NCBI GenBank assembly: GCA_964444135.1
Contig: CAYUFX010000009.1
Span: 22,737-86,736, forward strand
DNA: 64,000 bases
Direction: 5' to 3'
Source of the DNA: an uncultured Pirellulales bacterium
GTDB lineage: Bacteria > Planctomycetota > Phycisphaerae > Sedimentisphaerales > Anaerobacaceae
The notes beneath the pieces are model-generated. The model had not been told where the DNA came from, made no database searches, and was given only the letters and a program-made list of their open reading frames with translations. Shown piece after piece: positions 25,658 to 63,452 of the stretch; the first letter of the stretch is position 1; each line of letters begins with the position of its first letter. The position numbers and the translations under genes were made by a program.

Positions 25658-27268
25658 ATGAAACTATTATGGCAGAAATCGGAAGTCAGAAAACGGAAAT
25701 CAGAAGTCAGAAAACGGAAATCAAAAGTCAGAAGACGGAAATCAAAAGTCGGAGTTTGTCTTCTGTTCTCTTTCCTCTGTCTTCTGTTTTTGGTTGGATG
25801 TGTCAGCAGTGAGCAATTTTATGAAGAGGTCAGCTTCTCGAGAGAGTCTGCGTATCGGCAGTGGATGACCCGCAAAGAGCGCCAAGAGCAGTCTCAACCA
25901 CGTATCAGTGGCGAATTAAGCGCCGAAGATTGCTTAAAGCTGGCGCTGGTTAACAATAAAGTTCTGCAACGTATCACTGAGGAAAAGGAGATTGCCCGCG
26001 GAGAACGGCTAAAATCCTATTCAGCAATATTGCCTACTGTGGGTCTTACGGCGGATTACCTGCGGTTTGATATGGTTTCTTCTATAACTATTCCTGCTAT
26101 TCCTGGACTGGGTCCTGGTGGAAAAATTACGATGGGTGATGTCGACAATTATACGGTAGGGCTGAGGGTTGCTCAGCCGATTTATGCCGGTGGGTCAATA
26201 TGGGCTAAGATACACGCCGCCAGATTGTTCTCTATGCTTACCGACGAGACGGTTCGAGCGGCAGTCCAGGACCTGATTTATATGGCCACTCACTCATATT
26301 ACGATGTATTGCTCAATCAACATCTACTGAAAATTAGCGCTGATGCCGTTCGTTCTTCTCAGGCGCATCTTGATAACGTAAAACAGAGACGGCAGGGTGG
26401 TGTTGCCTCTGATTTTGACGTTCTGCGGGCTGAAGTAGAACTATCGAATTTCCAGGCTGAGCTGATACGGAACAAGAATGCTATCAACGTAGCAAAAGCA
26501 CAGCTACTTAAGGTAATGGGTGTTTCACAGGACAGTGACTTTACGCTTTCGGACGAGCTTGTTTACCTTTCTTCGGAAATGACAGTGGAAGAGGCTGTTG
26601 AAGCTGCTTATCGAAATCGCCCTGATTTATTTAGTCGCGAGTTTGATATAAAATATCAAAAGGAGTTACTCAGAGTTGCAAGGAGCCGATATTGGCCGAT
26701 TATCAGCGGCTTTTATGACAATACCTGGTCGAAGCCCGACCCGCATAACAGGATGGACATTAAGTGGGGGCATCTCTGGCAGGCCGGCCTTATGGCGACA
26801 CTGCCTATATTCGACGGCTTATCTCGCGAAGGTGATGTAATTGTGCAGAAAGCACGCCTTAGACAGGCGCAGATAGGTTTAATTGATGCCGAAGAGACTG
26901 CTTTGTTTGAATTGACTACGGCGCTGCTAAGTATTGAGGATGCTAAGGAGTTTGTTGAATCTCAGTCGTTGAATCTTAACAGGGCAAAAGAGGGACTGCG
27001 GCTTGCGGAAGTAGGCTACAAGCAGGGCACAAATACGCAGGTTGAGATGATAGACGCCCAGGCTGCCTTGACGACGGCGAGGGTAAATCATTACCAAGCT
27101 ATATACTCACACATAATTGCGAAATTGGATTTACAAAAAGCAATGGGAACTCTCACGATGTTTGAAGATGCTGAAGACAAAGGTCAGGCCCAAAATCTCG
27201 AATCGCTCGCTGCAGAAGAAAAGGCTTCAATGGCACTTGATAAAACAGAACGGGGGCAGACAAGATGA
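25658..27268 (+). CDS. TolC-family outer membrane efflux protein (lipobox LVGC)
   Basis: 536 aa with two TolC/OEP repeats. The only in-frame start upstream of the hydrophobic segment is ATG 25658, so the repeat-encoded basic stretch is part of the ORF. Confidence 0.8.
   Translation: MKLLWQKSEVRKRKSEVRKRKSKVRRRKSKVGVCLLFSFLCLLFLVGCVSSEQFYEEVSFSRESAYRQWMTRKERQEQSQPRISGELSAEDCLKLALVNNKVLQRITEEKEIARGERLKSYSAILPTVGLTADYLRFDMVSSITIPAIPGLGPGGKITMGDVDNYTVGLRVAQPIYAGGSIWAKIHAARLFSMLTDETVRAAVQDLIYMATHSYYDVLLNQHLLKISADAVRSSQAHLDNVKQRRQGGVASDFDVLRAEVELSNFQAELIRNKNAINVAKAQLLKVMGVSQDSDFTLSDELVYLSSEMTVEEAVEAAYRNRPDLFSREFDIKYQKELLRVARSRYWPIISGFYDNTWSKPDPHNRMDIKWGHLWQAGLMATLPIFDGLSREGDVIVQKARLRQAQIGLIDAEETALFELTTALLSIEDAKEFVESQSLNLNRAKEGLRLAEVGYKQGTNTQVEMIDAQAALTTARVNHYQAIYSHIIAKLDLQKAMGTLTMFEDAEDKGQAQNLESLAAEEKASMALDKTERGQTR
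25673..25791 (+). repeat. 17 in-register heptamers: 12 purine-rich (CRGAARW) then 5 pyrimidine-rich (TGTYYTC)
   Basis: Read directly: CAGAAAT CGGAAGT CAGAAAA CGGAAAT CAGAAGT CAGAAAA CGGAAAT CAAAAGT CAGAAGA CGGAAAT CAAAAGT CGGAGTT | TGTCTTC TGTTCTC TTTCCTC TGTCTTC TGTTTTT. The 21-nt super-period yields SEVRKRK x3. Confidence 0.9.
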
Positions 27269-28437
27269 AAGTAATCAGAAGAATTTTATTTTGGCTAATA
27301 GCATTAGCAGTGGTGTTTGTTACGTTTTGGTTTGGATTTATACAAAAAACCGCTGAAATCTTGGAGGAGGAAAAGACAGTTCCTGTTGAGGTCGAAGTCG
27401 TAAGCGCGGGCTCTATAGAAGAGACGATAGAGATGACCGGCTGGATAAAAGCAAACCAGATTGTGGACATAGCGTCCAAGGTGGCCGGACGAGTCGAATC
27501 CTTGCGTGTTCTTTCGCATGGGAGTGATTTAGCTGCTCGCCGCGATGCCTCGCAGCGGGCGGTCGAAGAGGGTGTGTCGGTCAAAAAGGGTCAGCAGCTT
27601 GCGATTATCGACCACGATGTTTACTTAGCTCAATTGGTTGCAGCTCAGGCCAGCGTTAGAGCTAAAGAGGTTGAGCTGGCTGATGCCGAGCGTGAAAAGA
27701 AGCGTGTCATTGCCTTATACGAAGGCGGGTCAGCTACAGAGCAGAGCAGGGATAAAGCTGTAACCGCTGCCGAATTGGCGGCGGCAAGTTTGAGCTTAGC
27801 CAAGGCCAATCTGGAGCTTGCTCAAATAAATCTGCGCGAATCCATGATTGTTTCGCCTATTGACGGGATAGTAACGGCCAAACATATTGACGAGGGTAAT
27901 CTGATCAGGTCGGGGGACCAGATTGTTACTATCGCCGATATGAAAACGGTAAGAGTAATTGTTGCCGCTACCGAAAAGTACGGTGCCCAGATTACTGTTG
28001 GGATGCCTGCCAAGATCAAAGTCGATGCGTTTGCCGAAAGAACATTTGATGCGAGTGTGCATTCAATCCATCCGGCTCTCGATGCACAAACCCACACCAT
28101 ACAGGTCGAGATACGTCTTGATAATGAGGAATTGCTGCTGAAGCCGGGTATGTTTGCCAGGGTAACTTTAATTACAAAGCGAAAAGACAATGTAGTGGTT
28201 GTCCCGCGTGATGTTGTTCTTGGAGGCAAGATTGATAAGCATTATGTGTATGTGATTGAAGAGGCAAGCGCCGGCAAAATTGCTCGTAAACATTTTGTTG
28301 AGATTGGAATACAGCAAGCGGACAGGTATGAAATAACCGATGGTTTAAAAGCGGGTGAAACGCTTGTGGTTAACGGGATGAATTATTTAGCCGACGGGAT
28401 GGATGTCGAGGTTGTACGAATAGAGGATATCAAATGA
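27265..28437 (+). CDS. Efflux RND transporter periplasmic adaptor (membrane fusion protein)
   Basis: 390 aa. N-terminal TM, coiled-coil hairpin, lipoyl/beta-barrel pattern. ATGA overlap with the TolC gene. Confidence 0.85.
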   Translation: MKVIRRILFWLIALAVVFVTFWFGFIQKTAEILEEEKTVPVEVEVVSAGSIEETIEMTGWIKANQIVDIASKVAGRVESLRVLSHGSDLAARRDASQRAVEEGVSVKKGQQLAIIDHDVYLAQLVAAQASVRAKEVELADAEREKKRVIALYEGGSATEQSRDKAVTAAELAAASLSLAKANLELAQINLRESMIVSPIDGIVTAKHIDEGNLIRSGDQIVTIADMKTVRVIVAATEKYGAQITVGMPAKIKVDAFAERTFDASVHSIHPALDAQTHTIQVEIRLDNEELLLKPGMFARVTLITKRKDNVVVVPRDVVLGGKIDKHYVYVIEEASAGKIARKHFVEIGIQQADRYEITDGLKAGETLVVNGMNYLADGMDVEVVRIEDIK

Positions 28438-43602: not shown

Positions 43603-43657
43603 AAGTGCCTAAAGTGAGCTAAAGTGAACTAAAGTGATTTCCAAACTTTAGGCACTT
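43603..43657. repeat. 13-bp perfect inverted repeat (AAGTGCCTAAAGT / ACTTTAGGCACTT) enclosing 3 x 10-bp tandem CTAAAGTGAN
   Basis: Read directly from the sequence. It lies in the yajC-secDF spacer inside a larger palindromic region (43585-43708, GGTAATTGGT / ACCAATTACC). Confidence 0.75.
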
Positions 43658-44137: not shown

Positions 44138-44190
44138 TTTCGTTTTCCTTTAATGATTGATTACTTGATTATTTGCAAGATGTTAGATTA

Positions 44191-44225
44191 TCAATAATCA
44201 ATAGTCAATAATCAATAGTCAATTC
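44191..44225 (-). repeat. Heptanucleotide array (minus-strand sense: GAATTGA CTATTGA TTATTGA CTATTGA TTATTGA)
   Basis: 5 x 7 nt. It overlaps the last four codons and stop of tgt. 27 nt are identical to the reverse complement of 56204-56230. Confidence 0.85.
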
Positions 44226-45306
44226 TTTCTGCCCGGTCGGCAAATTCGTTTCTATTTATGGCCTGCCTGATTCTAACCATTAGCCTCTGATAAAATGTTA
44301 GATTGTGTAGTGATACTAAGATCGGGCCGAGCATTTCTCCCGAATTAAAGAAATGTCTTAAGGCGGCCCGGCTGAAATTCCTGCAGCAGTAACAGTCGCA
44401 ATCGGCTTCAATTGGTCTGGCGTCATTTATATGTTCATTGTTCCTCAATCGCAAGGGGCCGTTGTCCGTGAAAGCAAAGGCATTTCGTCCGTTTCTGGTT
44501 GGCAGGACACAATCGAACATATCGACTCCCGCCTTGACGGCGGCAATGATATCCGCCGGTGTGCCCACACCCATAAGGTAACGGGGTTTATCCTGCGGCA
44601 AAAGCTGCGTTGTATGGGTAACCGTTTTTATCATATTCTCGTGCCCCTCACCTACACTTAAACCGCCGATAGCGTACCCGTCGAAACCTGTTTTGACAAG
44701 TTCTGATGCGCAGTATGTTCGCAGCTCAAGGTCTATTCCACCCTGGGCAATAGCAAAGAGCAATTGGTTGGGATTAGTATGAGCCTTTTTAGCGCGCTTT
44801 GCCCAGAGGATGGTTCTATTGACAGCTTTTTGAAGCTGTGGAGTGGCGATGGGAAATGGAGTGCACTCATCGAAGCACGTTATTATATCGGCACCTAATC
44901 GATTTTGGATTTCTGTTGCGATTTCAGCGTTCAGGTATATTTTTGCTCCGTCAACATGGCTGGCAAATTCAACGCCATCATCATCGATTTTCGTCAGCGG
45001 GCTTAGAGAGAACACCTGGTATCCGCCGCTGTCTGTCAGTATCGGTCCGTCCCAGGCCATAAATTTATGCAGTCCGCCAAGTTTTTCGACCACATCAACT
45101 CCCGGCCGGAGCAATAAATGGTAGGTATTGGCTAAGACAAGTTCGGAACCGGTTTCCTGGAGCTGCTGCGGCGTGATACCTTTTACCGCCCCGGCGGTGG
45201 CAACAGGCATAAAAACGGGAGTTTCGACCTCTCCGTGCGCGGTTGTTAATAGCCCAAGCCTCGCTGCCGAGTGGGTATCTGTATGGAGAATTTGGAAGTT
45301 ACTCAT
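44212..45306 (-). CDS. tgt: tRNA-guanine transglycosylase (queuine tRNA-ribosyltransferase)
   Basis: MSNFQILHTDTHSAARLGLLTTAHGEVETPVFMPVAT...ANTYHLLLRPG. I chose ATG 45306 (1 nt after the spoIID-like stop) over the track start 45459, which would overlap the upstream gene by 150 nt. Confidence 0.9.
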   Translation of the reverse strand: MSNFQILHTDTHSAARLGLLTTAHGEVETPVFMPVATAGAVKGITPQQLQETGSELVLANTYHLLLRPGVDVVEKLGGLHKFMAWDGPILTDSGGYQVFSLSPLTKIDDDGVEFASHVDGAKIYLNAEIATEIQNRLGADIITCFDECTPFPIATPQLQKAVNRTILWAKRAKKAHTNPNQLLFAIAQGGIDLELRTYCASELVKTGFDGYAIGGLSVGEGHENMIKTVTHTTQLLPQDKPRYLMGVGTPADIIAAVKAGVDMFDCVLPTRNGRNAFAFTDNGPLRLRNNEHINDARPIEADCDCYCCRNFSRAALRHFFNSGEMLGPILVSLHNLTFYQRLMVRIRQAINRNEFADRAERIDY

Positions 45307-45307
45307 C

Positions 45308-46648
45308 TCAATAAACACTAATAATCTTGGAATCCGGATAATAATAGGAAAGTATCTGCTTTGCGTTTTTACCTTGTCTTGCCATTCCTTCAGCGCCGCA
45401 TTGGCACATTCCAACGCCGTGGCCCCAACCTCTGCCCGATAAAAACGCCCATTTTTCACCCCATTTGACGATTTGGCAGATGGTGCTTCTCAATTTTCGC
45501 CCGCTCGGGTCGATTGCCAGACGAAAATCCTCAGCTCTTAGAAAATCGCTTTTGCCGCTTGAGCCGGAGAGCTCAACTTTAGTCAGTCGAGAAAATTCTG
45601 TATAGTTACTTTGCGCGGCGGGACTGAAATTTGTGATTTCCCCGAGCTGTTTTAGATTCGGATACCTTCGTAACAGTCTGTTTATAACATAAGTATTATC
45701 GAATTGAATCATGGGCCAGAAGAAAAATTTCGGTCTGGCCACGTTCCTGCAGTAGGGGCAGGGCACGCCGATTAGCGGCTCAAAGGAATCACCGAATACG
45801 TTTTTACTATTTTCGGTATGCCCGCCGCAGGTTGAGCTATAGTAGGCCGGAAAGATGTCTTCTGTGCCGTCGGTTTGTTTACAGACAAGGACCTGGCCTT
45901 TTGTTTGATTGACGGCGTCCCAAATCTGATTGGACTCGGCGCTGACGCCGCGATAGACCTGATGTGCCGCTGTTTTTTTCATGTCCCAGGTATGGTTGCC
46001 GCCGAACTGCTTTTTGATGTAGAAGCAATAGGTCCTTGCCGCGATTGCCTGGGCCTTGAGCGCCTCAGGTTCCCAGTAGCTGGGCATCTCGGCACCTACT
46101 ACGCCGGCTAAATACGCGTCAGGTGGAACCAGATTAATAGCGTCGAAAGTGCCGCCGTCGGGATTGATTATCAGCTTTAATTTGCCGCGATAAGCGTCAC
46201 CGTTCAGCTTGAAGATGTACGGCTCATCCGGGAAAATAATTACCTCATCATTCATAAAGGGCCGACCACCGATGGTGATTTCGCCGTTAATTAACCGGAT
46301 GCTTATCGGCGCATCGATTTGGTCAAAGCGGGCCGTTGGGAGCTGTGTTTGCAGGTTGGGGTCGTCGGTAATGCTGAATGACGAGGCAATCTTCAGCGTG
46401 CAGGCTTCGGCTTTGTCGAGCAGCAGGACCTTTACCCAAAACTGTGGTTCGATATCCATCTGGGGACTGGGCGTTGTGAGCTGCCGCCTCTTACAGCCGC
46501 TCAGAATTACCAGCGATAGGAAGAGGGTTACTGCTTTGCCGTTCGAGATTCGAAAATTCCGTCCCGCCGAGACCTTCCGCGATACATTTTCAGTAGGGTT
46601 TGCTGTCAATTGAATGGTGGTGGACAATATCAATTTCCCTGATACCAA
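45308..46648 (-). CDS. SpoIID/LytB domain protein (lipobox LSGC)
   Basis: 446 aa with AQAIAARTY, YSSTCGGHTE and GHGVGMCQCGA motifs. Confidence 0.8.
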   Translation of the reverse strand: MVSGKLILSTTIQLTANPTENVSRKVSAGRNFRISNGKAVTLFLSLVILSGCKRRQLTTPSPQMDIEPQFWVKVLLLDKAEACTLKIASSFSITDDPNLQTQLPTARFDQIDAPISIRLINGEITIGGRPFMNDEVIIFPDEPYIFKLNGDAYRGKLKLIINPDGGTFDAINLVPPDAYLAGVVGAEMPSYWEPEALKAQAIAARTYCFYIKKQFGGNHTWDMKKTAAHQVYRGVSAESNQIWDAVNQTKGQVLVCKQTDGTEDIFPAYYSSTCGGHTENSKNVFGDSFEPLIGVPCPYCRNVARPKFFFWPMIQFDNTYVINRLLRRYPNLKQLGEITNFSPAAQSNYTEFSRLTKVELSGSSGKSDFLRAEDFRLAIDPSGRKLRSTICQIVKWGEKWAFLSGRGWGHGVGMCQCGAEGMARQGKNAKQILSYYYPDSKIISVY

Positions 46649-48165: not shown

Positions 48166-48730
48166 TAACGCTATGTATCGCGTATATCGTATTGCGTGCT
48201 ACATCACGCACAACCAAGTGGGTATTATAATGTGACAACGAGGATTTGCAACAGTTTTTTTATCCGGCTTGGATTGGCCCCGAGGCCGGTAGCAGAGCCT
48301 GTCCCCGAATGTAGGGGCAACCCCGCGTGGTTGCCCTGATTCCCTTCTAAATTCGACATTGATCAGGTCAATGATACTGAGCCGAATAGTCCATGAAAAG
48401 GCGATGTTTGGAGCTTTAGTATGCCGCCTTGGGCGGATTTCGCCCGGAGCGAATCTTTGACTTCTATATTGATTATTACGGAGGACAGAGGAAAGAATAC
48501 GGAAGATGCAAGGAATATCGAATGCCGAACAAGTTACGAAAATAAATTAGGGGTGGTTTTTATATTTTGTGAAGTTTATTCTTGACGTGTAAAGACAAAT
48601 CGGTTTTATTAATGGGCACGGGTGGTGGAGACAAAATCTGTTGGTCTGTAACAGTCTATAAATAAAGGGTTTGTGTATTTTAAGGATGGTCGAAAGGAAA
48701 TATCTTAATTTTCTTGGAAAGGATTGAACG

Positions 48731-49507: not shown

Positions 49508-49529
49508 TTCCCAAGATTCGATTGCCCAT

Positions 49530-49557
49530 TGAAAATTGGAAATTGGAAATCGAAAAA
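49530..49557 (+). repeat. Heptanucleotide array TGAAAAT TGGAAAT TGGAAAT CGAAAAA
   Basis: Read directly from the sequence, between the OmpA-like gene stop and the ndk start. Confidence 0.7.
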
Positions 49558-53507: not shown

Positions 53508-54848
53508 ATGACTGACAGACCCCGCAAGGCGGGAACCCACAGAAACGGATTGAGCCGGCGTCAGTTCTTAAAGAGAGCAGCTGGCACATCTGTGGGGGCA
53601 GTGGGATTTCCATACATTGTTTCTTCGTCAGTTTTCGGTAAGGCCGACAGTATAGCGCCGAGCGAACGAATTACTATGGGTTGTATTGGTGTTGGCTGGC
53701 AGGGCGGCAGCAATATGAACTCATTTCTTCGCGAAAAAGACTGTCAAATCGTCGCCGTCTGTGACGTTGACAAAAACCACCTGCAGAGCGCGGCCAATCG
53801 TGTTAATGAGAAATACAAAAACAAAGACTGCGCTGCGTACGCGGATTATCGTGAGCTGTTAGCGCGCGATGATATCGACTCAGTATCGCTTGGTCTGCCC
53901 GACCATTGGCATGCGATTCCAGCTACAGAAGCTGCGAGGTCGGGCAAGGACATATTCGGTGAAAAGCCCCTGTCGCATAATCTAAGGGAAGGCCGAGCTA
54001 TGTGCGATGCGGTCGAGCGTTACGGCCGGATATGGCAGACCGGAAGCTGGCAGCGTTCGGAGGCCAATTTCCGCTTTGCCTGCGAACTGGTCCGTAATGG
54101 CCGCATCGGCAGAGTGCATACGGTCGAAGTAGGGCTGCCTTCGGGACATACCGACTTCGGTGAGACCAAGGGGCAGGAAGGGATTTGTCCGCCGCCCATA
54201 GAGCTCGACTATAACTTCTGGCTCGGGCCTGCGCTATACGAGCCTTACTGTCCGGCGCGTGTGCACAAGAACTGGCGGTGGGTCCTCGACCACGGAGGCG
54301 GACAGTTGATGGACTGGGTCGGTCACCACGTCGATATCGCCCACTGGGGTCTGGGCATGGATTACGGCGGCCCGTACGAGATAGAAGGCTCCGGGGAATA
54401 TCCGAAAGACGGATTATGGAACAGCCCGACAAAGTATCGGCTGACGGCGAAATACCCCGACGAGGTTACGATGACTATCGCCGGCGGGTACGACGACATT
54501 CGCGGCGGGACAAAGTGGATAGGCAAAGATGGGTGGGTCTGGGTTACTCGCGGCGATATAGATGCACAGCCCAAGAAGCTGCTCGAAGAGAAGTTCGGAC
54601 CGGATGAGATACACTTGTTTCGTTCGCCCGGACATTGGCGCAACTTCCTCGACTGTGTGAAGAGCCGTGAGACCACGCTAACGCCTTGTGAGGTTGCACA
54701 TCGCTCAGCGACGCCGGGCCACTTAGGGCAGATTGCTATGCGGCTGGGGCGCAAGATACGCTTTAACCCCAAGACCGAAGATATACTCGATGACCCGACC
54801 GCAACGAGCTTGCTCGGAGCAGCAATGCGCAGCCCGTGGCACCTGTGA
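53508..54848 (+). CDS. Gfo/Idh/MocA-family oxidoreductase with Tat signal
   Basis: 446 aa. SRRQFLKRAAG twin-arginine motif, GCIGVGWQG Rossmann start, EKPL motif, C-terminal MRSPWHL. Confidence 0.85.
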   Translation: MTDRPRKAGTHRNGLSRRQFLKRAAGTSVGAVGFPYIVSSSVFGKADSIAPSERITMGCIGVGWQGGSNMNSFLREKDCQIVAVCDVDKNHLQSAANRVNEKYKNKDCAAYADYRELLARDDIDSVSLGLPDHWHAIPATEAARSGKDIFGEKPLSHNLREGRAMCDAVERYGRIWQTGSWQRSEANFRFACELVRNGRIGRVHTVEVGLPSGHTDFGETKGQEGICPPPIELDYNFWLGPALYEPYCPARVHKNWRWVLDHGGGQLMDWVGHHVDIAHWGLGMDYGGPYEIEGSGEYPKDGLWNSPTKYRLTAKYPDEVTMTIAGGYDDIRGGTKWIGKDGWVWVTRGDIDAQPKKLLEEKFGPDEIHLFRSPGHWRNFLDCVKSRETTLTPCEVAHRSATPGHLGQIAMRLGRKIRFNPKTEDILDDPTATSLLGAAMRSPWHL

Positions 54849-54850
54849 AA

Positions 54851-54885
54851 TTGAATATTGACTATTGGAAATTGATTATCATTTG
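54851..54885 (+). repeat. Heptanucleotide array ATTGAAT ATTGACT ATTGGAA ATTGATT ATCATTT
   Basis: It starts 3 nt after the stop codon of 53508-54848. Confidence 0.85.
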
Positions 54886-56205: not shown

Positions 56206-56240
56206 ATTGACTATTGATTATTGACTATTGGTTATTTTTT
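56206..56240 (+). repeat. Heptanucleotide array ATTGACT ATTGATT ATTGACT ATTGGTT ATTTTTT
   Basis: It starts 2 nt after the stop codon of 54912-56204. Confidence 0.85.
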
Positions 56241-56293: not shown

Positions 56294-57607
56294 ATGAATA
56301 AGAAAAGAGAATTTAATCGGCGTAGTTTTCTGAAAAAAGCGGCCTGTGCGTCTTTAAGCACAGCCGGCTTTCCTTATTTGGTTCAACCTTCTGCTCTGGG
56401 TAAGGCAGGTTCAGTTGCGCCGAGCAATCGGATAGTGATGGGCGCCATTGGTGTAGGTTCACAGGGTTCGGGTAACATGCGTGGATTTTTAGGCAAGAAG
56501 GAAGTTCAAATGGTGGCCGTTTGTGATGTTGACAAGGCTCATCGCGACGGGGCCAAGGAAACCGTGGACAAGCGATACGAAAACAATGATTGCATGACAT
56601 ATTCGGATTTCCGCGAAGTGATTGAGCGTAAGGACATCGATGCATTGTCACTGGCGATGCCAGACCATTGGCATTCGATTCCGGTAGTAACGGCTGCCAG
56701 GGCCGGCAAAGATATGTACGGGGAGAAGCCTTTGGCCAGGACGATCCATGAGGGCCGGGTGATGGCAGATACGGTTCAGCGTTACGGAAGGGTCTGGCAA
56801 ACGGGTAGCTGGCAGCGTTCGGTTCGCGATTTTCGCCATGCCTGCGAATTAGTTCGCAATGGGCGGATTGGCAAAGTGCATAAAGTTGAGGTCGGCCTGC
56901 CGACCGGAGGCAGCACGGGAAATAAGCCGGTAGCACCGGTTCCTGAGGGTCTGGACTGGGACTTTTGGTTAGGGCCGGCCCCCTGGCGGCCTTATATGGG
57001 GTTCGGTCGTAATGGGCCGCATTGGGACTGGCGATGGATTATGGATTACTCCGGAGGGCAGCTAACTGACTGGGCAGGCCATCACATCGATATTGCCCAC
57101 TGGGGCCTTGGGTTGGACTATGCCGGCCCGGTTGAAATAGAGGGCATAGGTCTCTATCCTAAAGACGGCATCTACGATGTGCCAACCGAGTATAAGTTTA
57201 CCTGTAAGTACGCAGACGGTCTGACAATGGTTGTGGCCAATGACCGGCAGCAGCCCATGGGGATGGGAACCGTCTGGTACGGTGAAGACGGCTGGATACA
57301 CGTCAAACGCGGCAAGCTCGAGGCCAGCCCGGAAAGTATCTTAAAGGAAGTTATTGGCCCTGACGAAATCAGGCTGTACAACAGCCGAGACCATCAGCAG
57401 AACTTCTTAGATTGTGTTCGGTCTCGTGAAGAGACTATCACACCTATAGAGATAGCACACCGGTCGATTAGCGTGGGGCTTCTCGGTGAAATTGCAATGC
57501 TCGCTGAGCGAAGGCTAAGGTGGGACCCTGAGAAAGAAATCTTCCTCAACGACGATGAAGCCAACAGGATGCTTTCTCGGCCAATGCGCAGCCCATGGCA
57601 CTTATAA
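56294..57607 (+). CDS. Gfo/Idh/MocA-family oxidoreductase with Tat signal
   Basis: 437 aa. NRRSFLKKAA, GAIGVGSQG, GEKPL, C-terminal MRSPWHL. Closest paralogue is 53508-54848. Confidence 0.85.
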   Translation: MNKKREFNRRSFLKKAACASLSTAGFPYLVQPSALGKAGSVAPSNRIVMGAIGVGSQGSGNMRGFLGKKEVQMVAVCDVDKAHRDGAKETVDKRYENNDCMTYSDFREVIERKDIDALSLAMPDHWHSIPVVTAARAGKDMYGEKPLARTIHEGRVMADTVQRYGRVWQTGSWQRSVRDFRHACELVRNGRIGKVHKVEVGLPTGGSTGNKPVAPVPEGLDWDFWLGPAPWRPYMGFGRNGPHWDWRWIMDYSGGQLTDWAGHHIDIAHWGLGLDYAGPVEIEGIGLYPKDGIYDVPTEYKFTCKYADGLTMVVANDRQQPMGMGTVWYGEDGWIHVKRGKLEASPESILKEVIGPDEIRLYNSRDHQQNFLDCVRSREETITPIEIAHRSISVGLLGEIAMLAERRLRWDPEKEIFLNDDEANRMLSRPMRSPWHL

Positions 57608-57639
57608 AAGTAAAAAATAAAAATAGAAAGGAGCAAAAA

Positions 57640-59274
57640 ATGATTCGAAAGTTAAAAGATACCAAAATTTTACTGCCTGCTATCTTGTGTTCATTGCTTC
57701 TGGTGAGCACTTTGCAGGCCCAGTCGCCGGCGAAGCTGCGGGAGGTAACAGCCGAAGAAGTGCAAAAGATAGAAAAAGCAATGCCAAGAAGAGCGACCGT
57801 TAGAGTCACCAGCCCGCGGAAACTGCTGGTATTCTGGCGGTGTGAAGGATTTTTCCACACGTCGATCCCAGTGGTCAACAAAGCGCTCGAGATTATGGGC
57901 CAAAAGACCGGGGCGTTCGATGTAGTAACCACCGACGATTATTCGGTGTTCACAAGCGAGAATCTCAAGCAGTTTGACGCGGTGTGCCTGAACAATACGA
58001 CCGGCCTGAAGTTCAATCCCAAAGAGAACCCGGAGCGGTGCAAGGCCCTGATGGATTTTGTGAAAAACGGAAAAGGGATAGTAGGCGTCCACGCGGCCAC
58101 AGATAATTTTAACCAATGGCCGGAGGCACAGGAGATGATGGGCGGAAAATTCACCGGCCATCCTTGGACAAGCGGCGGGACCTGGGCGATTAAGATTGAC
58201 CAGCCCGACCATCCGCTTATGAAGGCCTTTAAAGGTAAGGGATTTAAGATAAATGATGAGATATATCGAACCGACCCGCCACTGTATTCACGAGATAAGC
58301 AGCTTGTTCTTATGAGTCTGGATATGAGCGACCCGACCACCCGTAACGTCAAAGGATTCAAACCAACTGATAATGATACCGGTACCAGTTGGGTCAAGAC
58401 CTGGGGAGAGGGCCGGATATTTTACTGCTCGCTGGGACATAACGACCACATTTTCTGGAATCCGGCGATATTACAGTATTATCTCGATGGTATTCAGTTT
58501 GCATTTGGCGACTATAAAGTTGATACAGAACCGAAACCTATCGTTAGTTCAGGAAAGGGAATAGAAATGGCAACGTTACAGGAACTACTTGAAAAGGTAA
58601 AGACGTACGATTGGGGCCAGAGCCGATTGGCGCTGACTGAAGTGAGCGAGAACATAAAAAAGGCACACAGCTCGCCCGCGGAGCTGAAAAAGATTGAGAA
58701 AAGTCTGCTGGATGTGCTCACCTCCGATTCAACGCGGGCCGGCAAGCAGTTTGTCTGCAGGGAATTGAGTATTATCGGCACCGAACAGTCCGTGCCGGAA
58801 CTGGCTAAAATGCTGACCGATGAAGAAACCTCGGATATGGCAAGGTATGCTCTGGAGCGGATACCCGGTACGGCAGTCAACGACGCATTGCGAAGGGCTT
58901 TGAGGAAGGCCCAAGGCAAACCACAGGTCGGCATAATCAACTCATTGGGCCAGCGCCGTGACGGAAGAGCGGTCCGTGCTCTGGGCAGACTTATTGACAA
59001 CTCAGACCAAACAGTAGCTGTCGCCGCTGCTGCCGCCCTTGGCCAGATAGCTGATTCCAGGGCTACCGAAGTGCTCTCAGCGGCAAAGGACAAAACAAGC
59101 GGCAAATTGCAAATGGTGGTTCTGGATTCTTATTTGAGGTGCGCCGACCAGCTTGTGGCCGAGGGCGATAAGCCCAAGGCTTTAGCTATCTACAAAGAGC
59201 TCCAGAAAGAGGGCAATCCGGCGCCGATACGTACTGCTGCACTGAAAGGCATGATAAGCGCGACGAAAAAGTAA
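57640..59274 (+). CDS. Secreted ThuA-domain protein fused to C-terminal HEAT repeats
   Basis: I prefer ATG 57640 (SD AAAGGAG 7 nt upstream; MIRKLKDTKILLPAILCSLLLVSTLQAQ signal) over the track start 57595. ThuA-like VGVHAATDNF...GGKFTGHPW, then HEAT-like repeats. Confidence 0.7.
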   Translation: MIRKLKDTKILLPAILCSLLLVSTLQAQSPAKLREVTAEEVQKIEKAMPRRATVRVTSPRKLLVFWRCEGFFHTSIPVVNKALEIMGQKTGAFDVVTTDDYSVFTSENLKQFDAVCLNNTTGLKFNPKENPERCKALMDFVKNGKGIVGVHAATDNFNQWPEAQEMMGGKFTGHPWTSGGTWAIKIDQPDHPLMKAFKGKGFKINDEIYRTDPPLYSRDKQLVLMSLDMSDPTTRNVKGFKPTDNDTGTSWVKTWGEGRIFYCSLGHNDHIFWNPAILQYYLDGIQFAFGDYKVDTEPKPIVSSGKGIEMATLQELLEKVKTYDWGQSRLALTEVSENIKKAHSSPAELKKIEKSLLDVLTSDSTRAGKQFVCRELSIIGTEQSVPELAKMLTDEETSDMARYALERIPGTAVNDALRRALRKAQGKPQVGIINSLGQRRDGRAVRALGRLIDNSDQTVAVAAAAALGQIADSRATEVLSAAKDKTSGKLQMVVLDSYLRCADQLVAEGDKPKALAIYKELQKEGNPAPIRTAALKGMISATKK

Positions 59275-59282
59275 AGATAAAA

Positions 59283-60728
59283 ATGAAAATCAAGTGCACA
59301 AGTCAGAAGACAGAAGTCAGAAGACAGAAGTCAGGAGACAGAAGCAATCGCTGCGGTAGAATTGTTGGATATGTCCTCTGTCCTCTGCTATCTGTTCTCT
59401 GTGCTGTTTGCCTCGGGGCAGCAGAACAGCAGGACGATGCCATCGGGATAGTCCTCGACATTCTTAAGAGCGGCGACCAGGAGATGCAGGCCGTGGCCAT
59501 CGCGATGGTAAAGGAAATGCCGGGGACAGAAATAACAAAAGCTTTGGCCAAAGAGCTGCCGAACCTTTCGGCTACCAGTCAGGTGCAACTGTTGTCCGCT
59601 CTGGGCGACCGCGGGGACGCCGCTGCCTTGCCGGCGGTTATCACTGCTGTGAAGGCCAAGGACGAATCCGTTCGGATTGCGGCTCTCAAGGCAATGGGGC
59701 AATTAGGTGATGCGTCTAGTGTTGGCTTATTGGCACAAACGGCGGCGGCGACCGGAGGCGCCGAACAAAAAGCCGCTCGCGAGAGTTTGTATCGTTTGCG
59801 CGGCCCGAAGGTCGATGAAGCAGTCTTAGCAGCGATTCCAAAGGCAGTGCCAAAAACGAAGGTGGAATTGATTAAGAGCACAGGTGAGCGGAATATATCA
59901 GCAGGTGTAAGCACTTTATTAAAAACCGCAACGGATTCGGACCGTAAAGTTCGAGTCGAATCGTTCAAGGTCTTAAAGGTCATTGCCGGCCAGGAGGATT
60001 TGCCGGCGCTGGTCGAGCTTTTGCTGAATTTGCGAAGCTCATCCGAGGCCAATGAGGCCCAGAAAATGGTAGCCGCTGTTGCCCATAAAATCGAGGACAA
60101 GGACCGTCAGGCCGAGGCGGTGTTGGCTGTGCTGCCTTCGGTTAAAGATGTCAAAAAACAATGCTCTCTGCTGAGCGTATTAGGCAAAATAGGCGACAGC
60201 AGCGCCCTGCCCCCGCTTGTCGAGGCGCTGAACAGCGACAATATTGAGAGCAGGGGTGCCGCCATCCGTGCGCTGGCAGAGTGGCCTACTTCCGAGCCGG
60301 CGATTGAGATGCTCAAGGCAGCGCAGAACTCTCAGGACAGAGCACACCGGATACTGGCACTGCGCGGTTCTATCCGCCTGCTTGGACTTGATACTAAGAG
60401 AACGCCCGAAGAAACGATTGAAATGTATAAGAAAGCAATGACTCTGGCGCCGGATGCGATTGAAAAAAGGAGGGTGCTTTCGGGGCTCGCCAATACCAAA
60501 TCTCTCGGCGCACTGCAAATGTCAGCAGATTATCTCCAGGACAAGACTTTATTCAGAGAAGCGGAATTTGCGGTGGTTAAAATCGCTGAGGGCATCTACG
60601 AAAACTTTCCTCAACAAACCAGGGATGTATTAGAGAAGGTTTTGCAAGCCTCGAAGAATGACCCGCTGCGTCAGCAGGCGCAGGAAGTGATAAATCGAAT
60701 TGAAGGATTGAAGTTAAAAGTGAACTAA
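59283..60728 (+). CDS. HEAT-repeat protein with repeat-encoded N-terminal signal-like segment
   Basis: 481 aa with multiple LxxLGDxxALPAL-type HEAT/PBS-lyase repeats. The N-terminus is derived from the heptamer arrays. Confidence 0.65.
   Translation: MKIKCTSQKTEVRRQKSGDRSNRCGRIVGYVLCPLLSVLCAVCLGAAEQQDDAIGIVLDILKSGDQEMQAVAIAMVKEMPGTEITKALAKELPNLSATSQVQLLSALGDRGDAAALPAVITAVKAKDESVRIAALKAMGQLGDASSVGLLAQTAAATGGAEQKAARESLYRLRGPKVDEAVLAAIPKAVPKTKVELIKSTGERNISAGVSTLLKTATDSDRKVRVESFKVLKVIAGQEDLPALVELLLNLRSSSEANEAQKMVAAVAHKIEDKDRQAEAVLAVLPSVKDVKKQCSLLSVLGKIGDSSALPPLVEALNSDNIESRGAAIRALAEWPTSEPAIEMLKAAQNSQDRAHRILALRGSIRLLGLDTKRTPEETIEMYKKAMTLAPDAIEKRRVLSGLANTKSLGALQMSADYLQDKTLFREAEFAVVKIAEGIYENFPQQTRDVLEKVLQASKNDPLRQQAQEVINRIEGLKLKVN
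59297..59415 (+). repeat. In-register heptamers: 7 purine-rich (CAGAAGW) + 28-nt spacer (4 x 7) + 6 pyrimidine-rich (TCCTCTG-type)
   Basis: CACAAGT CAGAAGA CAGAAGT CAGAAGA CAGAAGT CAGGAGA CAGAAGC | 28 nt | TCCTCTG TCCTCTG CTATCTG TTCTCTG TGCTGTT TGCCTCG. Confidence 0.9.
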
Positions 60729-60826
60729 AGTGCCTAAAGTTTTAAGTGCATAAAGTAAAAAAATAACTTTAGCTCACTTGTGGTACTTTCTAATTTTGGA
60801 GAGCGAATTAAACAGGAGAGAAAGTT

Positions 60827-61933
60827 ATGGTTATACAGGTTAGAAGTAAGACGTCAGATATCAGAGGTCGGAGGTCAGAAGTCAGAAGTCAGCTCTGTCC
60901 TCTGCTCTCTGTCCTCTGTGCTTTGTTGTCTGTGCTGCTGTCCTCTTGTGCGGGGCCATTAGCGGTTGACCCGGTTCTTGAGGCGAGTATGGCGATTGAG
61001 AGTGCCGACGCCGCTATGGGCGACTGGGAAGGAAGCTGGATATTGGATGATGAAAGCGATTCGGGACCATTGGCAGCACAGGTGATAGCTTTGGGTAAAG
61101 GTGAGTATAGAGCTAATTTTCTTGAAAAGTTTGATACTCGCGAGGAACCTATAGCAGTACTTGATGGCGAGCGCGACGGTGAAGTGGTGCGTTTTGAAGG
61201 ACAAGTCGAACTAAGCAACGGCGGCACCCTTGATGTCCAGGCAACTATTGAAGGCGGTAAGCTCAAGGGCAGTTTCAAGGGAGACGAAGCCGGCAGCGTC
61301 ACATTGAACAAGGCAACTCGGGTTTCACCCACATTGGGGGAAAAGCCCCCGGCCGGTGCGATTGTCCTTTTCAACGGCAAAAACTTCAAGCAATGGAAAC
61401 ATACAAACAAGAAACCAGACGCTGATTCTGTGAAATGGGCACTTGGGAAGGGCGGTTCGATGGAAGTCGTAAAGGGTACCGGTTCAATTGTTACCAAAAA
61501 GAAATTTACAGATTTCAAGCTGCACGTGGAATTTCGCACGCCCTTTATGCCCGATGCGCGAGGCCAGGGGCGCGGTAACAGCGGGGTGTATCTGCAGGAA
61601 CGATATGAGGTGCAGGTACTTGACAGCTACGGCCTCGAAGGTGAAGACAACGAATGCGGCGGAATCTATAAGGTCGGGGCTCCTCTCGTAAATATGTGTG
61701 CGCCGCCGACGCAGTGGCAGACTTACGATATTACTTTTTACGCCCCCGGTGCCGACAGGCCAAACGCCCAGGTGACAGTTGTCCACAACGGCGTGACGAT
61801 ACATGACAACATAAGTCTTCCAAAGCCGACCGGCGGTGCACTGGATAGTGACGTGACCAAACCCGGAGGTATATATCTGCAGGACCACGGCAATCCTGTG
61901 CAATACCGTAACATTTGGCTAATTGAATTGTAA
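60827..61933 (+). CDS. DUF1080 (3-keto-disaccharide hydrolase family) lipoprotein
   Basis: 368 aa. Strong SD AGGAGA. Lipobox LLSSC encoded by the pyrimidine array. DFKLHVEFRTP...GNSGVYLQERYEVQVLDSYG...NECGGIY. Confidence 0.8.
   Translation: MVIQVRSKTSDIRGRRSEVRSQLCPLLSVLCALLSVLLSSCAGPLAVDPVLEASMAIESADAAMGDWEGSWILDDESDSGPLAAQVIALGKGEYRANFLEKFDTREEPIAVLDGERDGEVVRFEGQVELSNGGTLDVQATIEGGKLKGSFKGDEAGSVTLNKATRVSPTLGEKPPAGAIVLFNGKNFKQWKHTNKKPDADSVKWALGKGGSMEVVKGTGSIVTKKKFTDFKLHVEFRTPFMPDARGQGRGNSGVYLQERYEVQVLDSYGLEGEDNECGGIYKVGAPLVNMCAPPTQWQTYDITFYAPGADRPNAQVTVVHNGVTIHDNISLPKPTGGALDSDVTKPGGIYLQDHGNPVQYRNIWLIEL
60834..60952 (+). repeat. In-register heptamers: 8 purine-rich (NAGARGT) directly abutting ~8 pyrimidine-rich (GTCCTCT-type)
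   Basis: TACAGGT TAGAAGT AAGACGT CAGATAT CAGAGGT CGGAGGT CAGAAGT CAGAAGT | CAGCTCT GTCCTCT GCTCTCT GTCCTCT GTGCTTT GTTGTCT GTGCTGC TGTCCTC TTGTGCG. Confidence 0.9.
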
Positions 61934-62027: not shown

Positions 62028-63452
62028 ATGAAAGAACAGAAAAAAACTACCAAACAACAGAGCAGCAAAATATCTCGGCGTGATTTTATGGGCGGTATCG
62101 CGGCGGCAGCGGTATGCTCTATTGGTTTCCCGAGCCTCATCCGGGCCCAGGGACTCAACGAAAAACTCCAGGTGGGATTCATCGCTGCGGGCGGACAGGC
62201 CGGGTCTCATACGGGCCAATCCCACAGAGCGGGCCTTCAGTGCATCGCCTTCGCCGAGGTTGACAAAACCCGCTGGGGCGGTGTCCTCGGCAAAAAAGGC
62301 TGGGAGAATGCCGCCGGCTATCAGGACTGGCGAAAGGTATTCGAGAAGCACGGCAAGGACCTCGATGTCGTTTTCGTGGCGACCCCGGACCACAGCCATT
62401 TTGCCCCGTCGATGACCGCCGTTTCAATGGGCATTCACTGCTACACCGAGAAGCCGCTGACCTGGTCGGTTCGCGAGGCGCAGTTGCTGGCGGCAGCCTA
62501 CGCCAGGAATCCCAAGGTTGTGACCCAGATGGGCAACCAGGGCCACGGCGAGGATGGATGGCGGCGCGCGTACGAACTCGTCAAGGCGGGCGCCGTGGGC
62601 GAGATCAAGGAGTTCCATACCTGGACGAATCGTCCGATCTGGCCGCAGGGCGGAGACCGTCCGGATTACACAAGTCCGGTTCCCGATACTCTCGACTGGG
62701 ACGCCTGGATCGGCCCGGCGCCGATGCGGCCATACGCCGGTCCCAGGGATGGTAAAGGAAACGGTCCCTATCATCCCTTCAACTGGCGGGGCGTGGTCGA
62801 TTTCGGCTCCGGGGCCCTCGGCGACATGGCCTGTCACACAACCGATGGGATCTACGCGATTATGGATCCAGGCTACGCCGCCACGGCCGAGCCGTTCATC
62901 ATGACCGGGCCCGTCAAAGATCAGTGGCCCGCCGGCATGATCGTCAAGAGCACCTACCGCGCCAAGGGCGGACGGCCCGGCTTCAAGACCTTCTGGTACG
63001 AGGGCAACGATGGAGTCGGAAAGCCGCTCATGCCGGATACGCCGGAGGAACTCGAGGTCGATGGACGCGAACTGCCGCGTACCGGAAATCTGATCATCGG
63101 CACCAAGGGCAAGATGCTGGTCATCGGTGACTACTGGAACAGCCCCATGCTGATCCCGGAAGCGAGGCGCAAAGAGTTCGGCAAAGCCAAACAACTGCTC
63201 GAACGCTCTCCCGGACACCACCAGGAGTTCTTTATGGCCTGTAGGGGCGAGAAGCCGCGACAGTTCAGTCAGTCCAACTTCAGCTACTCCGGTCCCATGG
63301 CCGCAAACATCCAGCTCGGCAACCTCTGCGCCCGCGCGGGAAAGAAGCTCGAGCTCAACGAAGCTGGGAAGATCACCAGCGACCCGAAGATCAACGATTT
63401 GGCCTGGCGCGAGCCCCGCAATGGTTGGGGACCGCTGGAGATGAAGGTCTAA
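62028..63452 (+). CDS. Gfo/Idh/MocA-family oxidoreductase with Tat signal (GC-rich paralogue)
   Basis: 474 aa. SRRDFMGGIAAAA, GFIAAGGQ, TEKPL. Visibly higher GC than the upstream genes. Confidence 0.8.
   Translation: MKEQKKTTKQQSSKISRRDFMGGIAAAAVCSIGFPSLIRAQGLNEKLQVGFIAAGGQAGSHTGQSHRAGLQCIAFAEVDKTRWGGVLGKKGWENAAGYQDWRKVFEKHGKDLDVVFVATPDHSHFAPSMTAVSMGIHCYTEKPLTWSVREAQLLAAAYARNPKVVTQMGNQGHGEDGWRRAYELVKAGAVGEIKEFHTWTNRPIWPQGGDRPDYTSPVPDTLDWDAWIGPAPMRPYAGPRDGKGNGPYHPFNWRGVVDFGSGALGDMACHTTDGIYAIMDPGYAATAEPFIMTGPVKDQWPAGMIVKSTYRAKGGRPGFKTFWYEGNDGVGKPLMPDTPEELEVDGRELPRTGNLIIGTKGKMLVIGDYWNSPMLIPEARRKEFGKAKQLLERSPGHHQEFFMACRGEKPRQFSQSNFSYSGPMAANIQLGNLCARAGKKLELNEAGKITSDPKINDLAWREPRNGWGPLEMKV

Follow-up and report, generated by a model that had tools for sequence, protein, structure and literature searches.

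A heptamer-repeat cassette at the start of a planctomycete HEAT-repeat gene: probably an in-frame insertion in a signal peptide, not a frameshift switch

Introduction

What is a tandem repeat of non-triplet unit length doing immediately behind a start codon? In a 64-kb stretch of planctomycete DNA, called the window throughout, the gene for a predicted secreted HEAT-repeat protein opens with arrays of heptanucleotides. An initial annotation, made from the letters of the sequence, saw in them a candidate phase switch, in which gain or loss of one 7- or 14-nt unit would shift the frame of the mature protein while leaving the character of the array-encoded peptide the same. Whether the arrays act in this way, or have some other relationship to the signal peptide that they appear to encode, is a question on which orthologous loci, population assemblies and two further cassettes in the same window can all be brought to bear.

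Results

Structure of the repeat cassette

The cassette has a purine arm, a spacer and a pyrimidine arm (Table 1). Inside ORF 59283-60728, the purine arm contains from 59302 to 59343 an (GTCAGAAGACAGAA)x3 array, whose three 14-nt super-units, GTCAGAAGACAGAA, GTCAGAAGACAGAA and GTCAGGAGACAGAA, comprise two perfect 14-mers and one imperfect one. TRF places the arm at 59300-59344 with a period of 14 (3.2 copies, 96% matches) and also with a period of 7 (6.4 copies, 81%); read as heptamers the tract is impure, with three variants among its six units and a lag-7 identity of 0.80. The pyrimidine units, starting from 59372, are TGTCCTC, TGTCCTC, TGCTATC, TGTTCTC and TGTGCTG, and TRF reports them at 59372-59402 with a period of 7 (4.4 copies, 79%). 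From the start of one array to the start of the other is 70 nt (10 x 7), which leaves the second array in the same 7-nt register as the first, and the annotated layout of three super-units followed by a 28-nt spacer in register stands. The spacer contains TAG in one of its reading frames; compared by eye, and not by alignment, with alleles L007, L006, L004 and L013, it resembles a core, CATCGCTCCGGCAGTCTTGTAGG, found where array and REP-like palindrome join in other alleles. The arms themselves form an imperfect inverted repeat, with arms of 30 nt that are 73% complementary, and pyrimidine arms, when read from the opposite strand, score as purine arrays.

Allowing up to three mismatches, AGAAGTCAGAAGTC has 25 matches in the window, compared to 4.6 +/- 2.0 in shuffled sequence, and none of 100 shuffles reached 25. 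Three intervals, 25674-25750, 59298-59339 and 60842-60890, hold 18 of the 25 matches. The heptamer array at 59298-59343 is more than chance. Weak matches of three to four units at 27263-27283 and 48480-48507 were read individually and dismissed as chance.

Table 1. Coordinates in the window of the HEAT-gene cassette, its parts and the two sister cassettes
Feature	Position	Strand	Basis
Sister cassette 1: 11 purine heptamers (period 21, 94% matches), then directly pyrimidine heptamers	25673..25787	+	
Secreted HEAT-repeat protein gene, 481 aa (predicted)	59283..60728	+	ORF list, translation, Pfam HEAT_2 at 2e-24
Purine arm: six heptamers ACAAGTC AGAAGAC AGAAGTC AGAAGAC AGAAGTC AGGAGAC + AGAA	59298..59343	+	TRF, inverted repeat, pattern scan
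28-nt spacer GCAATCGCTGCGGTAGAATTGTTGGATA	59344..59371	+	Sequence reading; frame translations
Pyrimidine arm, TGTCCTC x4.4	59372..59402	+	TRF, inverted repeat, hydropathy
Rest of h-region and c-region, AVCLGAAEQ, common to cassette-less orthologues	59403..59429	+	Translation, orthologue comparison
Sister cassette 3: seven purine heptamers, then directly about 7.6 pyrimidine heptamers	60842..60946	+	

Start codon and signal-peptide coding

The ATG at 59283 lies 8 nt past the TAA (59272-59274) that ends the ThuA-HEAT gene at 57595-59274. Both this spacing and the translation of the 5' end of the HEAT gene had been given in the initial annotation; the TAA was read directly, and re-translation matched exactly. 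The same annotation had named, as a finding that would tell against it, a cytoplasmic protein beginning downstream, for example at MQAVAIAM. About 120 orthologues conserve both the MKIK start, which is in frame, and the EQQDDAIGIVLDIL segment that lies ahead of MQAVAIAM. This lends no support to a cytoplasmic start farther downstream, and ATG 59283 appears, from this conservation, to be the real start of the gene. A promoter and terminator scan of 58800-61200 returned hits at shuffle level only.

Read from this ATG, the purine arm codes for an extended basic n-region, SQKTEVRRQKSGDR, and the pyrimidine arm for part of the hydrophobic h-region (VLCPLLSVLC). Net charge in the n-region is +7, residues 27-41 form a hydrophobic stretch with a mean Kyte-Doolittle value above 2, and LGAA follows. 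The basic-then-hydrophobic leader with a cleavage context that had been annotated is thus what we find; judged by composition, it looks like a Sec-type signal peptide, and signal-peptidase cleavage would be expected, by inspection, near LGA/AE.

The peptide type encoded depends little on the reading frame. RGARGWC-type units translate to heptads drawn from K/R/S/Q/E/T, and GTCCTCT/GTCTTCT-type units to heptads drawn from L/C/P/S/V/F; because both arms have a 7-nt period, each arm gives a like peptide type in every frame. The exact complement of AGAAGTC, GACTTCT, brings TGA in all frames, and GTCCTCT and GTCTTCT are without TGA, which would explain why coding pyrimidine arms are only imperfect complements of the purine units.

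Sister cassettes in the window

Three cassettes of one design and one unit family open three unrelated secreted genes within the window. Cassette 1 makes up the n-region and h-region of the leader of a TolC-like outer-membrane protein (25658-27268, lipobox LVGC), and cassette 3 the same regions in a DUF1080 / 3-keto-disaccharide hydrolase protein (60827-61933, lipobox LSSC). Judged again by composition only, both leaders resemble lipoprotein signal peptides, and frame translations of both cassettes are basic-then-hydrophobic in every frame. In each of these two genes the cassette replaces the ancestral n-region and h-region.

Presence and absence among orthologues

In most of the approximately 120 HEAT orthologues (Planctomycetota, Sedimentisphaerales) the signal peptide is plain, as in MKIKCTICNSSALLLLCCCAVCFGASEQ, with 102 nt, ATG included, ahead of a conserved IVLDIL. 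In the closest relatives, MKIKCT is followed by inserts of +42 to +207 nt, consisting of purine heptamer arrays, of a REP-like double palindrome (GTAGGGTGGGGCTTGCCCCACC...GGTGGGCTAAAGCCCACCCTAC) that adjoins the array, or of both. Plain, array+REP and window-type alleles coexist even inside clusters of 90% identity. Absence of the cassette from most orthologues, together with inserts in a subset, points to a recent insertion in the HEAT gene. Because plain n-regions already hold short purine motifs (plain DUF1080 alleles begin ATGGTTCAGGAAGTAAC), the cassette may still have arisen by growth in situ or by microhomology-driven copying.

A cassette that recurs in this way might be an adaptive, portable signal-peptide module, its long basic n-region and standardised h-region improving targeting. 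The cassette supplies the sole hydrophobic core in the TolC-like and DUF1080 proteins; among DUF1080 alleles the h-arm is constant at 19 aa while n-arms measure 15, 22, 29 or 43 aa; and the layout recurs in a lipoprotein of a Pirellulales MAG (L200). Many TolC orthologues, down to about 68% identity, keep the cassette, their SEVRRRK-type heptads differing in number and the RVCLLFSVLCPLFLAGC that follows being nearly constant, and such long retention in this lineage suggests that the cassette may be beneficial there, beyond mere tolerance. However, the cassette is not a requirement, given that close orthologues look intact with an ordinary signal peptide, and the spread of n-arm lengths has no visible optimum. 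We consider an adaptive module an unlikely explanation of the cassette as a whole.

Unit number, frame and stability

Slipped-strand phase variation, the reading proposed initially, would have gain or loss of 7- or 14-nt units toggle the HEAT gene reversibly on and off, as in the opa genes of Neisseria. The frameshift logic is mechanically valid: simulated gains or losses of 7 or 14 nt meet stop codons that truncate the protein after 20-60 codons, while deletions of 21 and 42 nt stay in frame. Comparison of related genomes, one of the checks proposed along with the idea, did reveal unit numbers that differ among close relatives. One MAG allele (L087, encoding protein P0162) has one extra heptamer, eight units vs. 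seven in its in-frame relatives, and its ATG is out of frame; frame loss, therefore, does occur. The L087 allele lies on contig JAUWCE010000327.1 of MAG GCA_030609485.1. There is also precedent: in opa genes the coding repeats are CTCTT pentamers that lie in the leader-peptide region, and the switching rate per cell per generation is about 1e-3 (PMC3960869); the CT repeats of Helicobacter pylori oipA are a similar case (PMC10564699). The cassette is like opa in having a non-triplet tandem repeat between the ATG and the mature protein, the position characteristic of contingency loci, within signal-peptide coding sequence, where the repeat gives signal-peptide-compatible residues in all frames and a change of one unit shifts the frame.

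The distribution of alleles, however, argues against switching. The ATG is in frame at 41 of 42 HEAT loci, across at least 13 insert lengths, each divisible by 3, and in-frame array+REP alleles have only 4, 7, 10 or 22 units, that is, three-unit differences. In DUF1080 alleles, the stretch that begins with the ATG and closes with the lipobox motif measures 111, 132, 153 or 195 nt, so that differences are multiples of 21 nt; the variation is confined to the purine (n-region) arm, with 4 to 17 units, and the pyrimidine arm does not vary. Six other metagenome assemblies, at 99.2-99.9% identity and with SNPs elsewhere, match the array of the window base for base in their consensus sequences, and array structure is kept even in L013, with only 83.6% DNA identity to the window. 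The six assemblies come from JGI samples 3300031698, 3300031624, 3300031554, 3300031650, 3300031365 and 3300031356. Four proteins with odd N-termini (P0162, P0147, P0137 and P0013) were considered as OFF alleles, and only P0162 is truly out of frame; in the other three the frame is intact, and the oddity reflects the start chosen by the gene caller or an ATG changed to TTG.

At true contingency loci, isolates show many OFF alleles. Known contingency loci have homogeneous tracts. In the opa genes, many copies are OFF in isolates, tracts are homogeneous and longer, and the products are variable host-interaction antigens. In contrast, the HEAT tract is a short, impure, six-unit mosaic, invariant in the sampled population, and a single out-of-frame allele, L087, appears among these consensus assemblies where a switch would show frequent ones. 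Nor is the cassette specific to the HEAT gene, as it opens two other secreted proteins in the window. Cassette genes belong to sugar-metabolism and efflux operons, and the sister cassettes lie in housekeeping-type genes (TolC efflux duct, DUF1080), not in a variable surface-antigen family. An on/off switch is, on this evidence, distinctly improbable, although the mechanical half of the original proposal survives.

RNA folding

It is very improbable that the cassette is chiefly an RNA- or DNA-level element, in which the arms form a long hairpin after the start codon to modulate translation initiation, early elongation or mRNA stability and the peptide is incidental: the complementarity of the arms, the fold of cassette 3 (-50 kcal/mol, z = -3.2) and the recurrence of paired inverted arrays in other phyla favor it, but the sense-strand fold of the HEAT cassette has z = -0.84 with 40 of 200 shuffles as good, the arms of DUF1080 alleles do not co-vary in length, the mismatches between arms are those needed to avoid TGA in a coding pyrimidine arm, and Rfam at gathering threshold gave no match anywhere in the window. 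When all three cassettes were folded on both strands, z lay between -0.8 and -3.2 and neither strand was consistently favored, so that a conserved RNA structure seems improbable.

Discussion

The explanation that we favor, and consider probable, is that of an in-frame, translated repeat cassette residing inside a signal peptide that is cleaved off, where it is tolerated or has been co-opted, and not serving as an active frameshift switch. In its layout, the spacer separates purine heptamers from pyrimidine heptamers that approximate their reverse complement; the first arm would translate into a long, strongly basic n-region and the second into h-region. Extra residues would leave with the signal peptide on export; the mature protein would therefore be unchanged, and the insertion tolerated. 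Slippage or unequal recombination would let the unit number drift, with selection retaining only frame-preserving changes, in multiples of three units and nearly all in the n-region arm.

Rickettsia palindromic elements (RPE) and other intragenic MITEs provide known examples of in-frame insertion in protein-coding genes (PMC10969869). The cassette is likewise a short, dispersed, palindrome-type repeat, putatively translated within ORFs, present or absent among orthologues with the frame kept, and apparently tolerated by the host protein, a likeness drawn from dispersed copies, polymorphism and inverted-repeat architecture. RPEs differ in being unique sequences of about 150 bp, with no heptamer arrays and no 21-nt length steps, and they are not reported in signal peptides. 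The double palindrome beside the array in orthologous HEAT alleles recalls REP/BIME elements; those are extragenic, whereas the orthologues' palindrome would be translated within the signal peptide (…SLVGWGLPHQLRLGGLKPTL…), and a search of the window for it gave 0 matches. As dispersed tandem arrays of 7-nt units, the cassettes also bring to mind the STRR arrays of cyanobacteria, which are mostly intergenic, are known only from certain (heterocystous) cyanobacteria and are not known to have paired purine and pyrimidine arms. The heptanucleotide units of STRR arrays are reportedly CCCCAGT, TTGGTCA and CAACAGT, as described by Mazel et al. in 1990; the cassette units, RGARGWC and found in a planctomycete, are not of this kind.

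At least 120 genome stretches, from many phyla, contain (AGARGWC)x4 or a longer array. Among the matches listed, a complement-type array occurs within 300 nt for 36 of 126 arrays, vs. 20 of 590 control windows. A search with an idealised 48-aa cassette peptide found only 16 short ORFs (50-83 aa, no Pfam domains) in Moorena and other taxa; these are most likely spurious calls across arrays and amount to no census of signal peptides with a cassette. No description of the arrays was found in literature searches on unit strings, on heptanucleotide repeats in signal peptides and on Sedimentisphaerales repeats. A tentative and somewhat doubtful proposal is that these paired purine/pyrimidine heptamer arrays, occurring in many phyla and apparently undescribed, are frame-independent, portable signal-peptide cores that were co-opted in Sedimentisphaerales and some other Planctomycetota, extending, replacing or possibly creating export signals and tuning the length of the n-region by seven codons at a time. 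Within this proposal, AGARGAC-type units may also give a frame-independent peptide type in either orientation.

For annotation, the cassettes affect start-codon choice in Planctomycetota MAGs, where callers began several orthologues, P0137, P0147 and P0013 among them, downstream of a conserved in-frame MKI[KN]. They also counsel caution, in that a non-triplet repeat near a start codon need not be a phase switch. If the favored explanation of an in-frame cassette, tolerated or co-opted in a cleaved-off leader, is true, these genes would be a clear example from nature of a repeat element that resides in signal peptides. The signal peptide is the sole discarded part of a secreted protein, and its purine-rich-then-pyrimidine-rich coding matches the layout of the cassette. 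Selection would then be filtering tandem-repeat mutation to three-unit steps, and the widespread heptamer-array family would be a possible source of new export signals.

Results

Heptamer cassettes open three genes

The heptamer array at 59302-59402 was confirmed, since it is present as described and since matches to its unit family, 25 in the window against 4.6 expected, far exceed chance; 18 of the 25 are concentrated at three places. The whole array segment lies inside the HEAT gene. TRF assigned the purine array a period of 14 (96% matches; 81% at period 7) and the pyrimidine array a period of 7 (79% matches), and each is an imperfect reverse complement of the other (30-nt arms, 73% complementarity). 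The pyrimidine units keep the 7-nt register across the spacer, just as the initial annotation had read it.

The same purine-then-pyrimidine layout opens two further genes of the window, encoding a TolC-like outer-membrane protein and a DUF1080 protein; in both, the purine arm supplies the n-region of the signal peptide and the pyrimidine arm the h-region. The best period of the TolC-like cassette is 21 nt (93-94% identity) rather than 7 (66-71%). Pyrimidine arms score as purine arrays when the opposite strand is read, and a scan of the 64-kb window for the RGARGWC-type unit family found no further convincing arrays besides these three cassettes. Tandem repeats of another, 9-10-nt type occur twice, one overlapping the HEAT-gene 3' end.

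Features of the window, and of two orthologous loci (L007, L079) with a duplicated module
Feature	Position	Sequence or strand	Remark
14-nt super-units x3	59302-59343	GTCAGAAGACAGAA, GTCAGAAGACAGAA, GTCAGGAGACAGAA
28-nt spacer	directly after 59343		then TGTCCTC-type heptamers from 59372
HEAT gene (host ORF)	59283-60728	reads MKIKCTSQKTEVRRQKSGDRSNRCGRIVGYVLCPLLSVLCAVCLGAAEQQDD...	HEAT_2 repeats
TolC-like outer-membrane protein	25658-27268	begins MKLLWQKSEVRKRKSEVRKRKSKVRRRKSKVGVCLLFSFLCLLFLVGC	lipobox present
DUF1080 / 3-keto-disaccharide hydrolase protein	60827-61933	begins MVIQVRSKTSDIRGRRSEVRSQLCPLLSVLCALLSVLLSSCAG	lipobox present
Short tandem repeats	43609-43637, 60717-60740	CTAAAGTGA-type
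AT-rich heptamers	54848-54879, 56206-56236, 49528-49556	+
AT-rich heptamers	44190-44223	- strand reading
Duplicated module	L007 ~110-290; L079 ~2130-2295

Insertion in the HEAT gene

Close homologues of the HEAT protein number in the hundreds; those few with a source name are labelled Planctomycetota, Phycisphaerae or Sedimentisphaerales. In most, the signal peptide is an ordinary one, MKIKCTICNSSALLLLCCCAVCFGASEQQDE. Some of the closest homologues carry an insert after the start MKIKCT, made up of QKSEDRR/QKSEVRS heptads, of the peptide SLVGWGLPHQLRLGGLKPTL or of the two together; the DNA encoding this peptide forms a REP-like double palindrome, GTAGGGTGGGGCTTGCCCCACC...GGTGGGCTAAAGCCCACCCTAC. 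Single 90%-identity clusters hold alleles with 0, 1, 2, 3 and 8 heptads, and the window's own cluster contains a plain, insert-free allele (P0122), an array-plus-palindrome allele (P0121) and the window type. By comparison with these orthologues, the cassette in the HEAT gene is an insertion. By eye, the window's spacer resembles the core CATCGCTCCGGCAGTCTTGTAGG that joins array to palindrome in other alleles; if so, the window allele would be a derived form, with the palindrome lost and a pyrimidine arm present.

The palindrome itself, GTAGGGTGGGGCTTGCCCCACCAACTTCGTCTCGGTGGGCTAAAGCCCACCCTAC, is absent from the window. It lies in frame about 100 nt past the HEAT ATG in orthologous loci L014, L071, L017, L009, L090 and others, where it is translated as SLVGWGLPHQLRLGGLKPTL within the signal-peptide coding region, and a form 9 nt shorter occurs in L002, L003, L005, L010 and L011. 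In L007 and L079, a module comprising the upstream-gene end, ATG, short array and REP palindrome is tandemly duplicated just 5' of the functional start; of the two copies, the distal one is out of frame and stops early.

Reading frame and length variation

Loci fetched comprised 80 orthologous metagenome, six identical-protein, five odd-N-terminus and one genome-scan locus (L186); frame was counted in the 42 whose anchor segment was at least 85% identical. The conserved start is in frame with the mature HEAT protein in 41 of these, over at least 13 insert lengths (among them 144, 153, 162, 165, 168, 183, 189, 192, 204, 210, 225 and 309 nt, measured from the ATG to just before the conserved anchor IVLDIL; plain alleles measure 102 nt). 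Unit counts in the array-plus-palindrome class are 4, 7, 10 and 22, the first ACAAGTC included. The sole out-of-frame locus, L087 (MAG GCA_030609485.1), has 8 units, exactly +7 nt. In this allele (L087 992-1100) the gene caller placed the start at an in-frame TTG within the palindrome. The resulting N-terminus, MPHQLRLGGLKPTLLLLLVCFCSVCF, still resembles a signal peptide, so export might continue from this internal start. Three other proteins suspected to be OFF alleles were rejected, reflecting gene-caller start choice or an ATG-to-TTG change with the frame intact.

DUF1080 alleles, all in frame, measure 111, 132, 153 or 195 nt from ATG to lipobox-motif end, that is, 21-nt steps, with an n-arm of 15, 22, 29 or 43 aa and a constant h-arm of 19 aa. 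TolC orthologues vary in the number of SEVRRRK-type heptads ahead of a near-constant RVCLLFSVLCPLFLAGC; plain orthologues read MKLLWQKCIGIIVAGMVTLQLAGC. Cassette length variation is therefore real, and is restricted to in-frame steps and to the length-tolerant n-region arm. Two nested elements also keep frame: SPQDALRQRRK units between the heptads of TolC leaders (P0172, P0174, P0175, P0178, P0180, P0183), and a 21-nt insertion mid-cassette in DUF1080 loci L069 and L009, translated within FLPQGILW.

Twelve contigs encode the identical HEAT protein. Six loci, one set drawn from six JGI samples, match the window at 99.2-99.9% over 5-7 kb, with SNPs and indels elsewhere, and all six are identical base for base at 59283-59420 and 60827-60960. 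Locus L013, at 83.6% DNA identity over 2.4 kb, keeps the alternating GTC/GAC unit order, unit number and 28-nt spacer. The downstream GFO/IDH/MocA gene shows strain-level indels at ~62744-62763 and 63182-63191 (versus L082, L081, L085): L082 carries an insertion of ~24 nt, or 8 aa, and three assemblies have small indels near 63182-63191 that compensate for one another. In these assemblies neither of the two arrays varies.

Coding properties and translation start

In simulations on the window's HEAT gene, changes of +/-7 or +/-14 nt ran into a stop after 20-60 codons; the frame stayed open at -21 and -42 nt. The HEAT leader has a net charge of +7 (residues 1-26) and a hydrophobic core (residues 27-41); the TolC-like and DUF1080 cassettes encode a basic-then-hydrophobic peptide in every frame. 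As had been read earlier, the HEAT start lies 8 nt past the ThuA-HEAT stop. It lacks a Shine-Dalgarno sequence, and the short gap recurs in orthologues (e.g. K*R*QMKIK); translational coupling to the ThuA-HEAT gene is plausible. AGGAGAG precedes the DUF1080 start.

Wider distribution

A scan for (AGARGWC)x4, using one genome per species, returned at least 120 matches, with about one expected by chance by our own estimate. Those listed come from Bacteroidota, Acidobacteriota, Verrucomicrobiota, Planctomycetota, Desulfobacterota, Nitrospirota, Cyanobacteria, Omnitrophota, Atribacteria, Actinomycetota and Proteobacteria, mostly as MAGs, with few isolates (Pedobacter montanisoli, Okeania hirsuta, Galbibacter). 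Among the matches listed (L092-L211), purine arrays of AGAAGTC, AGAGGAC, AGAAGAC and AGAGGTC run to 4-35 units, and many fall within short open reading frames only and so look intergenic. A complement-type array lies within 300 nt downstream of 36 of the 126 listed arrays (~29%), versus 20 of 590 control windows. A Pirellulales locus (L200) has the signal-peptide layout and a lipobox. No description of these purine heptamer arrays was found in searchable literature.

Another heptamer family in the window is AT-rich (ATTGACT / ATTGATT / ATTGAAA, 4-5 units) and sits at, or up to about 20 nt past, the stop codons of four genes. Three arrays occupy short intergenic spacers, two of these within the oxidoreductase gene cluster, and the fourth runs into the 3' end of minus-strand gene 44212-45459.

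Discussion

Two known systems stand closest to the cassette by analogy. The opa genes carry CTCTT repeats in the leader-peptide region, with position and frame logic in common with the HEAT cassette but different behaviour (PMC3960869). In-frame Rickettsia palindromic elements resemble it in the tolerance of intragenic repeats, but differ in architecture (PMC10969869).

An adaptive role of the cassette in targeting seems unlikely. Phase variation by unit gain and loss, the slipped-strand switch proposed initially, is more doubtful still: its frame logic is mechanically right, and L087 is out of frame with precisely one unit more, but unit counts otherwise vary across relatives only by in-frame lengths, the window's array is invariant in six assemblies, and the arrays mix unit variants, with an identity of ~0.8 at lag 7, unlike a tract under continual slippage. 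A hairpin role in RNA or DNA is very improbable, despite the complementary arms, as RNA folding gave no consistent signal among the cassettes (z = -0.84 for the HEAT cassette) and Rfam no match. An exact complement to AGAAGTC or AGAGGTC has TGA in every frame, whereas the complements of AGAAGAC and AGAGGAC (VFCLLSS, VLCPLSS) are stop-free, and it is these stop-free types that make up the coding pyrimidine arms; stop avoidance would explain why the hairpin is imperfect, and argues that constraint acts on the peptide rather than on pairing.

The best-supported reading is that this is probably a translated, in-frame repeat cassette in a disposable signal-peptide region. In the HEAT gene the cassette would be tolerated; in the TolC-like and DUF1080 genes it may have been co-opted to serve as the working n-region and h-region. 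Unit number would drift, with selection filtering the changes to multiples of three.
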